A DNA stretch of 64,000 bases from NCBI RefSeq assembly GCF_018977255.1, contig NW_024704762.1:8680001-8744000 (forward strand), read 5' to 3'. Numbering within the stretch: position 1 is the stretch's first letter; every line of letters begins with the position of its first letter. The notes below the pieces were generated by a model. It did no database searches. It worked only from the letters and a program-made list of their open reading frames with translations, and was not told the origin of the DNA. Source of the DNA: Callorhinchus milii. Lineage: Eukaryota. Both the position numbers and the translations under genes were made by a program. Positions 9,713 to 63,549 of this stretch are shown here, piece by piece.

Positions 9713-10708
9713 ATGGAACTGAATAATGGTGAACTATTGCCTGTGCAGGCAGAAGATGAGGGAACTGCATCAGAGCTCCACAATGGAGGACTGATGGAAC
9801 CGGATGCTGAAGGGGCAGAGGTTGGGCAGGGTGATGAGGAGGCGGGGTTGGATAACGAGGAAGCGGAGCTGGTCAATGGGGATGTGGAGGTGGAGCTGGC
9901 TGATGAAGGGCTGGAGGTGGTGTCGGACAGTGAAGTGGTGGAGGTAGAAGTGGGGTTAGGCGATGAGGATGCAGGACCCAGTGATGAGGAGGTGATGGCA
10001 GAGCTAGGCAATGAGGTTGGTGATGCAGCTGAGCTGGGCGACGAGAGGTTGGAGGTGGGGCCAGATGGTGAAGAGGCAGAGCCGGGGCCAGATGGTGAAG
10101 GGGCAGAGCCGGGGGCAGATGGTGAAGGGGCAGAGCCGGGACCAGATGATGAAGGGGCAGAGCCAGTGCTGGAGGATGAAGTGGCAGACGTGGGGCCAGA
10201 TGAGGAGGAGGTGGAGCCAGTGCCAGATGGTGAGCGGGCGGAGCCAGTGCCAGACGATGAAGGGACGGTGGCAAAGGTGAAGCCAGATGTTTCGGGGGAG
10301 GAGCCAGTGATGGATGATGAGGGGGCTCTGATGGAGGTGGGGACAGATGCTGAGGGGGTGGAGCCAGTGCCAGAGGAAGAGGGCATGATGATTGATGATG
10401 AGGGGGCGTTGGTGGAGTCGGGGACAAGTGGGGAGGAGGTAGGGCTAATTCCAAAGGATGAGGGGATGGCAGAGGAGGTGGGGCCGGAGGATGAAGGGTT
10501 AGTGACAGAGGCGGGGCCGGAGGGTGAGGGGGCAGTGACAGAGGTGGGGCAGGAGGATGAAGGGGCAGGGCCAGAGGGTGAGGGGGTAGTGACAAAGGCG
10601 GGGCCCAAGAATGAGGGGGCGGGGCCGGAGGAGGAAGTAATTGCAGAAACTATTCTTCGATCAACCCGTGCGGACAGCCTGAATGTCAACTCTGTCGCCC
10701 AGCCACAG
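9713..10708 (+). CDS. SMN-like gene, first coding exon: 332-aa Glu/Gly/Asp/Val-rich repeat region
   Basis: Acceptor ttttag at 9691-9696, donor cag|gtatgt at 10709, open frame (ORF track 9698..10816). Confidence 0.75.
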
Positions 10709-13700
10709 GTATGTCAATCGACGTCAATCTCACAGCGAGTGAGTCCTCTGAGCCAGGACTCGCTTATGCGTTTTGTCCGTCTTCAGATCGCAACCTCAGT
10801 GTTGCAGAATCTCTAAAGACCCGAGATTTCAAATGAAGTCCACAGCCACCGCATGTGAGCAAGGGATTCCCTGAGCCGAGACCATAAGAAACTGTAATAT
10901 TCAACCAAATTAAATGGAGGTTAAATTTCTCTGCCCAAAGGGAGCGCTTGTTTATCTCGGCTGCCTCAATACCCAATGTGTTTCCTTTCCTCCGTCCAGT
11001 GGGCATGTTGGGAAGTGGGTGATCGCTGCCGGGCCAGGTGGACCGAAGACGGCATAATCTACGCAGCCACCATCCAGTCCATAAACATCGGCAAACAGAC
11101 CTGTACCGTCCTCTACACCGATTACGGCAACAGGGAGGAGCAGACCCTGTCGGAGCTGCTGCCCGAGGAGAGCGAGAGCTTCGGAGAACGGGTGAGAGAC
11201 GTAACTTCAGTCCCTGGTCCCTGACGTCAGTGTGTGACCACAAGAGGTTTCTGTGTATAGAGCGCCCTTCACAAAGGGGTAGCATCTCGGACCATGTTTA
11301 TAATAATCCTTGCATTTGATAAAGCGCCTTATTACGTCATTGAGACTGTAAAGAGGATTGACTGTATTTTGACTGTGATGTCAGTGGGTGACTGACTACA
11401 AGACGTGGACATAAGTAACTGCGACTGTGCCGTTGGGAGAATTTGCAGTGGGCAGTGACCATTGAATAAAACTCAGTGTTTTTGTTGTCCTTCAGCAGCA
11501 AAATACAGAGTCAAGCCAATTTACAGTTAATTCTGTGAAGCACTTGGAGACGTCTCAATGACTTGATAAGGCGCTGAGGAACATTGGCAACAAATCAGCT
11601 TGCTTCACTCTTGACACCCGGATGCATTGTTTTTGAGAATAATATGAGGGGGAAGTGATATGTGTAGCACTTTGCTAGTCACTTTGGCGTAATGTTTACT
11701 GTTCCGCCCCCCCCCCCAGAGCGATTTGTCCCTCTTTTGTTTAGTTCCTGTGTTCCTCATGCAAATTCATTTCCTTTCCTCCATCCAGTGGGAATGTTGG
11801 GAAGTGGGCGATCGCTGCCGGGCCAGGTGGTCTGAAGACGGCATCATCTACAGTGCCACCATCCAGTCCATAAACATCGGCAAACAGACCTGCACCGTCC
11901 TCTATACCGGATATGGCAACAGGGAGGAGCAGAGGCTCTCGGAGCTGCTGCCCGAGGAGATCGAGAACTTCGGAGAACAGGTGAGAGGCGTAACTCGGTT
12001 AAAAAATTGGGCGAATGAGAACGCCTGCGGTTGATGTGGTGTCACAGACCAAGAGTGACCTGGTGAGCCAGAGATCCAGGTAGTTAATAATAATAATAAT
12101 AATAAAGGTCCTCTGTGAGGTGCTGACTGACCTGTTGTGGGTTCCAGAATTTTGGAAGAGTTTGGGAATGAAGCCAATGCAACTCATCAGCCAGAGCTCG
12201 GTAGGGAACTCGGATGAGGATGGAGAAGAAAATGATCATTAATGGCTTGAATTGGCTGCCGCGTTTTGCTCACAGAACACACAGTCAATCCACTTTACAA
12301 TGTATTCTGTGAACTACTTAGAGACGTCACAACGACATGATATCAATTGCACTATATCAATTGAAATTATTATTACTATAATTGACTCTTATGACTCAAT
12401 GGAACTGAGACCTTTTTCCTTCCTCCATTCAGTGGGAATGTTGGGAAGTTGGTGATCGCTGCCGGGCCAGGTGGTCCGAAGACGGCATCATCTACGCCGC
12501 CACCATCCAGTCTATAAACATCGGCAAACAGACCTGCACCGTCCTGTACCATGGGTACGGCAACCGTGAGGAGCAGAGCCTGTCAGAGCTGCTGCCCGAG
12601 GAGAGTGAGAGTCTCGAGGAACAGGTGAGAGACGTAACTCGGTCCCTGACGTCAGAGGGTGACTTGTCCACTGGAGGTAAAAGTAACTGCCTTTGCAATC
12701 CAAAGCTCCACCCGGGTTGGGTGGCCCTGGCTGGACAAGCAGTGGGAAAGCTTGCCAGACAACCATATCAATGGCAAACTATGTGGTTTTAGTGTTTAGA
12801 CTTCAGCAGTTACCCCAACGCACACTCTGAGCTCCCCAAGTGTTGCCTCTTGCCAACCTGCACCTAATACTTTCTGGAGTTAGGTCCGCAGGATGCATCC
12901 CTCCTGGCAGAGAGAGAGAGAGCATATTCCATTCCAACAATCTATCTCTGGAAGGGGTGGGAGGGAGAGATCACAACTGCTCTATTTCAAGGAGTGAGTT
13001 TGTCTGGCTGGAGTTGTGTGGAAGGGTCAGGGAGGGCTCTCATTCTGCCCATATAGTCTATGATCCCTTGCTTCTATCTGCAGGTGGTGGAGAGAGGCTC
13101 ATTGACAGGAGACTGGGAGAATACCTCCCCTATGTGCAGAGCAGACATCTTCAAAGAGAAACGCTGGCACCATCACTTGCAAGAGTCTCGCTACCATGGA
13201 CATCAGCCACTCACACCCCCCGAGACCCCCACCCACAATCACACCTACACCCACAACCAAACCATCACACAGCCACCCACACCCCCCCTGATGCCTCGAT
13301 ACAGCAATGTCCAGGTTTGTGCCAAAATGGGGTTTAAATTTGTTGTAGTGTAAATGGGAAGTGAAATAAGTTGCAATGAGACAATTGGGAGTGACGTGAG
13401 GTTTAATCCAATCCAACTATAAACTCGAGTGGAATGTCAATTGCATTAATTGGTGGGATTCTGTCCCTGCCTTGTTTTATTTTTCTTGTTGTTTTGAGTT
13501 TTCACTGGGATGAATTAACGACAACAACAACAGATTACAGTTGCATAGCACCTTTCATGTCAGAAAAAATGTCCCAAGGTAGTGGACAGTTAGGGATTTG
13601 GACCCGAGCTGGGGGGTGGGATCAGGAGGGTGGTGGGCAGGGAGAGTAGGTAATTATCTAATTTAATAGATCTCAATCTCTTTTGCCCCTCCCTCCCCCA

Positions 13701-63000: not shown

Positions 63001-63549
63001 TTGCCTTAACCACTAAGCGCCCCTTGGCTATTACTAGTGTACATCGGTCACTTTCTGCATTGACGAGCTAACTTTTACAATCACTCGCTCGCTATATCGA
63101 GAAATTCCATCGAGGTGAAAGGCACTAGTTAAGTGCAAGTTGTGGATGTGTTCAGGATAGTGTTGCAGCTCCTTCTGCTTTCCTCTACCACCGCAACCCC
63201 TCCCACCCCACTCCCAAATGCCCCTGGAGTTCCCAATCTCAGCCACGTTGAGCAGGCCACAACGGAAGTCGGGGATGGAAAGGACGCAGGTCTAAGAAAA
63301 TTGTAGAGTTGTGCTATGGGAATGGCAGGCAGGCAGGCTGCTCCGTTCAAACTCCTTGACTTTTGTAAACGCGAAAAAGAGACCGACTTCTGCTCGTCCA
63401 GCGACTCTGACTTTGACGATGACGAGCCTCGCCGTTTCCACGTGCAGATCAAGCCGGCGCTCCCGCGGGATGGGCCCCGGGACACCTCTGCCTCTGTGGA
63501 GGTGCTCAAAGCCTCCATCGGGAATATCGTCCTCTCCGCCAATCCGAGC
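45043..63549 (+). CDS. FCHO1: F-BAR domain only protein 1 (exons 1-13, 3'-partial)
   Basis: Exons 45043-45069 (MQHFGVSFW), 57437-57528, 57638-57712, 58370-58511, 59191-59343, 59884-59988, 60127-60225, 60419-60515, 61100-61144, 61410-61482, 62226-62250, 62701-62758, 63371-63549. [28 protein letters not shown]1-type SSDKLALCH and [20 protein letters not shown]; linker [10 protein letters not shown] and [21 protein letters not shown]. Confidence 0.9.
46185..46500 (+). mobile_element. DeuSINE-like (SacSINE1-like) element
   Basis: cgagtcagaaggtcttgggttcaagctccac..cattgtcagagg..ttcaggtgg..cccatgacactattcgaaaagag..gtgtcctggccaa. Family assignment is from recall of shark SINEs. Confidence 0.65.
46530..46710 (+). 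mobile_element. L2 LINE 3' end
   Basis: Translates [20 protein letters not shown] (typical L2 ORF2 terminus), then gcgctatataaatgcaagttg tail. Confidence 0.75.
47085..47437 (+). mobile_element. Older-subfamily tRNA-derived SINE
   Basis: Degenerate head, internal ctctgtttacctagcaataagtaggaa segment and caaggattattat tail. Confidence 0.8.
52255..52577 (+). mobile_element. Older-subfamily SINE
   Basis: Partial head (gggtttgattccc), internal segment, body and gaggattattattat tail. Confidence 0.8.
55577..56850 (-). mobile_element. 5'-truncated degenerate CR1 LINE (RT core to 3' UTR)
   Basis: ORF 55688..56212 ([42 protein letters not shown]) is the CR1 ORF2 C-terminus. RT motifs SKFADDTK (about 56460-56483) and GVP*GSVLGP, the latter with an in-frame stop. 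Confidence 0.92.
58575..59030 (+). mobile_element. DeuSINE-like element interrupted by an L2-tail fragment
   Basis: cgcctccgagtcagaaagctttaggttcaag head, cttcggatgagac, tgtcctggccaa and aaagcgctgtatcaaatg tail. Confidence 0.6.
60684..61038 (+). mobile_element. Full-length older-subfamily tRNA-derived SINE
   Basis: Head, 70-bp internal segment, body and caaggattattattat tail. Confidence 0.85.
61562..61882 (-). mobile_element. Full-length young tRNA-Ala-derived SINE
   Basis: Reverse complement nearly identical to 4400-4714. Confidence 0.92.
62759..63370 (+). other. FCHO1: U12-type (minor spliceosome) AT-AC intron of FCHO1
   Basis: 5' site ATATCCTT, branch point TCCTTGAC at 63353-63360, AC 3' end at 63369-63370. 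Splicing restores the frame (..[19 protein letters not shown]). Confidence 0.9.

Follow-up and report, generated by a model that had tools for sequence, protein, structure and literature searches.

A stretch of 64,000 nucleotides from the chimaera Callorhinchus milii (contig NW_024704762.1, positions 8,680,001 to 8,744,000; hereafter the window) carries an SMN-like gene between a Surp/G-patch gene and a MAP1S-type gene. Outside humans, SMN is commonly regarded as single-copy. The gene is an SMN paralog with three Tudor domains and a YG box but no Gemin2-binding domain. It was probably born in an early-vertebrate whole-genome duplication, and its predicted role is that of a multivalent dimethyl-arginine reader that forms oligomers, and not that of an assembly factor of small nuclear ribonucleoproteins (snRNPs).

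Gene structure and domain architecture

The SMN-like gene lies on the + strand and has seven coding exons, with the ATG at 9713 and the stop codon at 14392-14394 (Table 1). In its product of 663 amino acids (aa), an acidic head of 332 aa is followed by the segments of three SMN Tudor exons, then by a His/Pro/Thr linker and the YG box. All six introns are of the GT..AG type and in phase 0. The gene model is equal in length to the NCBI protein P0001 ('uncharacterized LOC103182025', Callorhinchus milii, 663 aa), and exons 1-6 are identical in sequence. All six splice joints were present in contigs of one public run, X1 (depth 112-251), of which further contigs cover the last exon at 14322-14472 and 14501-15492. 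Some of the joints were found in runs X2 and X3 at a depth of about 5, and none in run X8. These four runs are presumably RNA, and their depths were not taken as a sign of tissue or level. Since the joints in the run contigs are exact GT..AG joints, they represent spliced transcripts. The SMN-like gene is an intact, spliced SMN paralog.

The acidic head (110 D/E vs 9 K/R) occupies the place of SMN exons 1-2b. No family was matched in this 332-aa exon by a Pfam scan, and in a 5-kb search its end showed a weak resemblance to SMN exon 1 (E 0.018). One X1 contig spans 9698-10705, with an in-frame 21-nt deletion within the acidic repeat, and is joined to Tudor exon 1. The predicted model of the protein in Atlas is poor (predicted local distance difference test, pLDDT, 0.46).

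The three Tudor exons are 86-90% identical to each other in DNA, form their own clade at 100/98, and show 27 synonymous and 23 non-synonymous codon differences, counted over three non-independent pairs. Because of these identities, the clade and the codon counts, we consider the triplication to be recent or homogenised, and the repeats to be under constraint. The five cage positions W102, Y109, Y127, Y130 and N132, which are named for human SMN in PMC9481570, are intact in all three. The YG motif is also complete: its Tyr/Gly, Ser, His and Thr positions are as in the canonical SMN of the same genome, which lies on another sequence of the assembly, C1. In contrast to the Tudor and YG exons, the Gemin2 site is missing. 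The Gemin2-binding family PF20636 was found at a single genomic locus, the C1 SMN (one match of seven candidates), and not at the paralog locus. A custom hidden Markov model (HMM) built from 116 Gemin2-helix segments found nothing in window 5901-11000, where exons upstream of 9697 are unmapped, and did find the C1 control. Neither tblastn nor the HMM revealed a Gemin2 exon hidden in the stretch from the upstream gene to Tudor exon 1, and such an exon was rejected; exon 1 joins Tudor exon 1 directly.

Further upstream, a CpG-rich stretch at window 8540-8660 and a possible donor at 8878 are candidates for the promoter and an untranslated first exon of the SMN-like gene. Two facing motifs in this stretch resemble ZNF143/Staf sites. 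A short frame at 8794 was considered as a decayed ancestral first exon and discarded; its score against 12 paralog N-termini (8.7) was below the best chance match in all 35 control stretches.

Origin of the paralog

The first-pass annotation read the gene order as SUGP2, SMN-like, MAP1S and FCHO1 and proposed a vertebrate whole-genome duplication (2R). The Surp, MAP1 and F-BAR/muHD domains confirm this order on the + strand. Tudor and YG searches of the chimaera genome (4 of 12 and 2 of 17 candidates matched) gave only two SMN-type loci, the paralog on C21 (10.7 Mb) and C1:115.19 Mb (C1, 139 Mb). The C1 gene is a normal, canonical SMN of 8 exons and 281 aa. The MAP1B-type gene is 260 kb away from it and FCHO2 about 620 kb, which is the neighbourhood that had been predicted for SMN1 in this assembly.

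The two blocks are collinear. On C1, MARVEL (115.147 Mb), Occludin_ELL (115.160), SMN (115.186-115.194), MAP1 (115.45) and FCHO (115.80-115.86) follow each other on the + strand, and on C21 the order, also all on the + strand, is MARVEL (8.640 and 8.649 Mb), Occludin_ELL (8.654), SMN-like (8.69), MAP1 (8.71) and FCHO (8.74), so that the occludin-type, SMN, MAP1 and FCHO pairs share both order and strand. This gene content comes from Pfam scans of 90 and 78 long open reading frames (ORFs), a procedure that misses short exons, and the labels MAP1S, MAP1B and SUGP2 are tentative. On C21, a weak EBP-family match, a minus-strand Surp/G-patch gene and the window's Surp gene lie between Occludin_ELL and the SMN-like gene, and a gene with a REX1-B domain follows FCHO. 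One gene for PI3K p85 lies at C1 119.2 Mb, another at C21 9.48 Mb and one more on C5; muHD genes are likewise on C1, C21 and C5. The paralog and the C1 SMN have the same start of the Tudor exon and the same boundary between exons 6 and 7. A genome search with the G-patch exon found only itself, so it added no synteny.

The two MARVEL exons and one Occludin_ELL exon at C21 8.640-8.654 Mb (L026:162-1349, L026:9224-10000 and L025:3780-4115) are likely to belong to MARVELD2-like and occludin-like duplicates. Human 19p13.11 is not known to keep any of these duplicates but OCEL1. The human genes MAP1B and FCHO2 lie in 5q13.2, and MAP1S, FCHO1 and SUGP2 in 19p13.11, where no SMN-family gene is known. 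Human SMN is placed at 5q13 in PMC13529492.

The gene had been regarded as kept in this lineage in particular, which proved not to be so. Proteins of the paralog type, which combine two Tudors with a YG box, were found in Latimeria, Protopterus, Xenopus, Geotrypetes, turtles (including Chelonia mydas), crocodilians, the gecko Sphaerodactylus, sturgeons, Amia and many teleosts. At least two Tudors and a YG box were present in 29 of 147 stored representatives, some of them non-vertebrate, and Atlas offers as a lead a 97-member chordate cluster of this type for which no Gemin2 family is shown (score 0.89). The mammal-named matches that were checked were all canonical SMN (9/9, in a small, word-limited sample), as were the three bird-named ones. 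The paralog is thus not special to the chimaera lineage but has apparent counterparts in bony fishes, amphibians and reptiles.

For the trees, 45 rows were chosen by hand out of about 300 proteins so that each species gave one row per type. They comprise 22 canonical rows, 20 of the paralog type and three from invertebrates (hemichordate, echinoderm and cnidarian), with no lamprey, hagfish, tunicate or amphioxus row. The alignment concatenated the Gemin2 helix, one Tudor and the YG box in 135 columns and was run with the first or the last Tudor. All 22 canonical rows formed one clade (98/95 and 97/94) that spans chimaera, ray and bony vertebrates, and in which the C1 SMN sits beside Mobula SMN. 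The window protein lay outside this clade in both trees, paired with a paralog from the shark Cetorhinus (88/85 and 92/82), and was not nested with the SMN of its own species. The 42 vertebrate rows were split from the three invertebrates at 93/92 and 93/95. In the approximately unbiased (AU) test with the first-Tudor set, a duplication confined to chondrichthyans was rejected (p-AU 0.0215). In the Tudor and YG columns, the C1 SMN is 82% identical to ibis SMN, 80% to axolotl SMN and 66% to the paralog, with 64-82% across other canonical SMNs, and 10 of 41 fourfold-site comparisons between C1 SMN and paralog agree, which is about chance.

These results support a split of SMN and paralog that predates the radiation of jawed vertebrates and postdates the divergence from the invertebrate outgroups in the tree, as the first-pass annotation had suggested, and with the collinear C1 and C21 blocks they uphold a whole-genome duplication. 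It is highly likely that an occludin-SMN-MAP1-FCHO block was duplicated and that one copy remained the housekeeping SMN while the other diverged. The whole block would have been duplicated in an early vertebrate whole-genome duplication, of either the first or the second round (1R or 2R). One copy would have stayed conserved; the other would have evolved faster. Its Tudor exon would have been duplicated, either several times or with recurrent homogenisation, its Gemin2 helix would have decayed or disappeared, and in mammals the gene itself would have been lost.

In a 53-column Tudor tree, the repeats group by species in the window gene and sturgeon and by position in turtles and crocodilians. 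In a comparison of P0144 and P0145, Tudor 1 of Xenopus laevis groups with caecilian Tudor 2 (100/97); between the two amphibian models, either the repeat order was swapped or different exons were kept.

Possible function and competing explanations

Whether the paralog is an oligomeric, multivalent dimethyl-arginine reader or scaffold is, in our judgment, evenly balanced. We propose it because the cage is intact, the YG motif is kept and the Gemin2 site is absent, and because of two lines of literature. A dimerised SMN Tudor suffices for dimethyl-arginine-dependent condensation, according to bioRxiv 10.1101/2020.09.15.297994, and PMC13529492 describes exon 2a as indispensable for Gemin2 binding and snRNP assembly, and the YG box as the zipper through which SMN oligomerises. 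Oligomers of the paralog, which may include canonical SMN, would form through its YG box and would display many Tudor cages on short flexible linkers. Such a display would favour avid binding to arginine-methylated proteins and condensates in restricted tissues, and the acidic head may either serve as a disordered spacer or bind basic clients rich in RG. The linkers between Tudors are 7 to 55 aa, which suggests that the Tudors act as independent beads and not as a fused fold.

The ancient duplicate could instead still be a tissue-restricted back-up SMN that takes part in snRNP assembly through YG-box hetero-oligomers and the Gemin2 of canonical SMN. This explanation, which has the same duplication origin and differs in mechanism only, is unlikely but keeps an appreciable share of the probability. 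It is consistent with the fully retained YG motif in the window protein, the Cetorhinus paralog, coelacanth and lungfish, with the Tudor cage, intact in 36 of 40 paralog Tudors when a Tyr/Phe exchange is allowed at 109, 127 and 130, and with the Gemin2-type AL(I/L/V)xxY helix, which is visible in 14 of the 20 paralog rows. However, the Trp of the DIWDD motif is kept in only two of these 14 and lost in the other 12, the window gene has no Gemin2 helix at all, and the tandem Tudor in all 18 bony-vertebrate paralog rows indicates a changed function.

Several observations weigh against a multivalent reader of whole-genome-duplication origin. The Cetorhinus protein, the only shark paralog found, has a single Tudor and keeps a Gemin2-type helix; W102 is replaced by Y in 4 of the 40 paralog Tudors; and the YG box is eroded in teleost paralogs. 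A clade of the window protein and the C1 SMN was 9.35 log-likelihood units worse and was not rejected (p-AU 0.122). The window protein is more identical to canonical SMNs (59-69%) than to bony-vertebrate paralogs (41-59%), so that faster evolution in the latter is required. Two-Tudor SMN also occurs in non-vertebrate records (e.g. P0199), and architecture alone is therefore no proof of kinship. Finally, the 20 paralog-type rows were monophyletic in only 24% and 30% of bootstrap trees, and the chimaera and bony-vertebrate genes could therefore be different duplicates.

Such hidden paralogy, with two ancient duplicates on, for example, a C21-type and a C5-type chromosome, would agree with the third paralogous region on C5 and with the chimaera gene being without the N-terminal motif that is common to other paralogs. 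We consider it improbable. Monophyly of the paralogs costs no likelihood and was not rejected (p-AU 0.433), the Cetorhinus protein that pairs with the window protein has the bony-vertebrate N-terminal motif, and the chimaera genome has only the two SMN-type loci. In addition, several turtle paralogs lie on contigs of 16-20 Mb and the canonical genes on contigs of 134-137 Mb, which is the same pattern as that of C21 and C1. A recent lineage-specific duplication or transposition that landed by chance beside MAP1S and then diverged fast is very improbable: the unrejected clade with the C1 SMN, the highest identities being to canonical SMNs and the recent Tudor triplication itself would fit it, but the gene occupies the matching slot of a four-gene collinear block, fourfold sites are saturated, the C1 SMN is nearer to tetrapod SMN than to the paralog, a chondrichthyan-only duplication was rejected, and, as had been argued from the outset, the six introns, with their joints in X1, exclude a retrocopy.

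Apparently non-vertebrate proteins of the SMN type with two Tudors are P0004, P0170, P0180, P0212, P0179, P0183, P0199, P0201 and P0223, of which P0199 is an MMETSP transcript and P0183 a EukProt entry. P0126, a protein of 1733 aa from ENA assemblies, has 15 stretches that match the SMN-type Tudor. From the two-Tudor records, Tudor duplication in SMN seems to be recurrent.

Extension of the multivalent-reader proposal to other animals is speculative, and we hold it to be clearly less probable than its failure: the second SMN of most non-mammal jawed vertebrates would be uncoupled from Gemin2 and snRNPs, would repeatedly have become a multivalent reader, would serve as a tissue-specific, possibly germline, condensate scaffold, and may co-oligomerise with SMN. 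If this is true, the paralog would be a natural separation-of-function SMN, and frogs and fish used as models of spinal muscular atrophy would carry a modifier that has been overlooked. It is a long-running question whether snRNP assembly or Tudor-driven condensates matter in the disease, and a paralog in which the Tudor is kept and multiplied and the YG box retained while the Gemin2 site is gone offers a ready-made test of how SMN function is split. LOC100144954 of Xenopus tropicalis makes the paralog testable in a model animal.

Neighbouring genes, earlier records and related systems

Table 1. Features of the window, with positions counted from its first nucleotide.
Feature	Position	Strand	Coding segment	Remarks
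3' part of Surp/G-patch gene, upstream neighbour	1..5942	+		Surp match in 2889-3413 (Pfam); exons and stop 5942 from sequence
SMN-like first coding exon	9697..10708	+	9713-10708	acceptor before 9697; ATG 9713; 332-aa acidic repeat region
Tudor exon 1 (64 aa), equivalent of SMN exon 3	11000..11191	+	11000-11191	PF06003 70.5 bits; cage intact; joints seen
Tudor exon 2 (64 aa)	11789..11980	+	11789-11980	PF06003 75.6 bits; joints seen; 90% nt identity to Tudor exon 1
Tudor exon 3 (64 aa)	12433..12624	+	12433-12624	PF06003 78.4 bits; joints seen; 86-88% nt identity to Tudor exons 1 and 2
His/Pro/Thr-rich linker exon (77 aa), in place of SMN exons 4-5	13084..13314	+	13084-13314	joints seen; no Pfam family
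YG-box exon (39 aa), equivalent of SMN exon 6	13704..13820	+	13704-13820	PF20635 47.2 bits; 3' boundary same as C1 SMN exon
Last exon: 23 codons (SMN exon 7 equivalent), stop, 3' untranslated region	14323..15564	+	14323-14394	end approximate; AATAAA at 15559
MAP1S-type gene, paralogon marker	19006..35904	+		PF23415, PF25281 (MAP1B_N, MBL_MAP1B); 3' end unmapped
Part of FCHO1-type gene, paralogon marker	58371..63549	+		begins earlier, runs past window; F-BAR exon 58371-58511

The SUGP2 label of the upstream Surp gene is presumed from likeness. The second Surp/G-patch gene, on the minus strand, lies head-to-head upstream of it. In the large exon of the window's Surp gene there is a one-base frame change at 1170-1215; both frames are coding-like, and an assembly indel is likely. 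The frame downstream of this shift gave a weak LAP2alpha-family cluster in Atlas (score 0.84, 11% of members).

MAP1 paralogs are located at C1 115.45 Mb and C22 3.95 Mb. The large-exon ORFs are 1292 aa on C21, 2021 aa on C1 and 3111 aa on C22, and the MAP1S label was given on comparison of these lengths with the sizes of MAP1S, MAP1B and MAP1A. The first intron of the MAP1S-type gene has a G-rich tandem minisatellite at window 19150-19690. The muHD of the FCHO1-type gene lies just past the window, at C21:8.747 Mb. Against human FCHO2 (PDB 2v0o), the F-BAR exon of C1 scores 77.8 bits and that of the window 63.5 bits; since the C1 exon scores higher, the window gene is labelled FCHO1 rather than FCHO2. 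A degraded LINE reverse-transcriptase-like ORF was recognised by eye within the FCHO gene, at window 55688-56275.

An SMN-like duplicate is already a row in a published table. Hara et al. 2018 (PMC5901865, Additional file 9, Table S10) list an SMN-like 'elusive' gene as an early-vertebrate duplicate of SMN1/2. It is recorded there for gar and for two species each of alligators and turtles, and its orthologs number 21 in birds and 0 in mammals, the latter count being drawn from 112 gene sets and 66 transcriptome sets. The table contains no cartilaginous fish, its SMN-like row gives no synteny or domain data, and the main text does not mention SMN. It is very likely that the crocodilian and turtle paralogs of this study are the same group, although no accession was matched. 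In the accessible part of the SMN-evolution paper PMC6603021 the word 'paralog' is absent, and nothing on this paralog is given in the supplements of PMC10208646 or the short supplement of PMC13450315. A literature search, whose coverage leaves out most subscription papers, found no paper on it; nor were its synteny, a member from chondrichthyans, an architecture with several Tudors or the erosion of the Gemin2 site found in print. The ohnolog status itself is ordinary and already tabulated. What this study adds is the collinearity of four genes, a chondrichthyan member and an architecture with several Tudors and no Gemin2 site; this altered architecture, on which the first-pass annotation was silent, is the least ordinary of the findings.

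Among known systems, canonical SMN is the closest. It shares with the paralog the SMN-type Tudor (the best PDB match is the human SMN Tudor, E about 6e-19), the YG box, and the Tudor-start and 6/7 boundaries. Canonical SMN has one Tudor whereas the chimaera paralog has three, and the paralog is without the Gemin2-binding and lysine-rich exons 2a/2b, has the acidic head instead, and lies on another chromosome. Human SMN2 is a hominid duplicate and is unrelated to the paralog (PMC13529492). SMNDC1/SPF30 and TDRD3 belong to the same dimethyl-arginine-reading Tudor group, but their matches (PDB E 1.4e-9 and 6.4e-8) are much weaker than that of SMN. Neither is known to have a YG box. Tudor and the TDRD1/TDRD6-type germline scaffolds carry several methyl-arginine-reading Tudors per chain, which suits them to condensates. 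Their likeness to the paralog is in the way of working only. The Tudors of the window gene are of the compact SMN type (PF06003), are encoded in 64-aa exons and are accompanied by a YG box.

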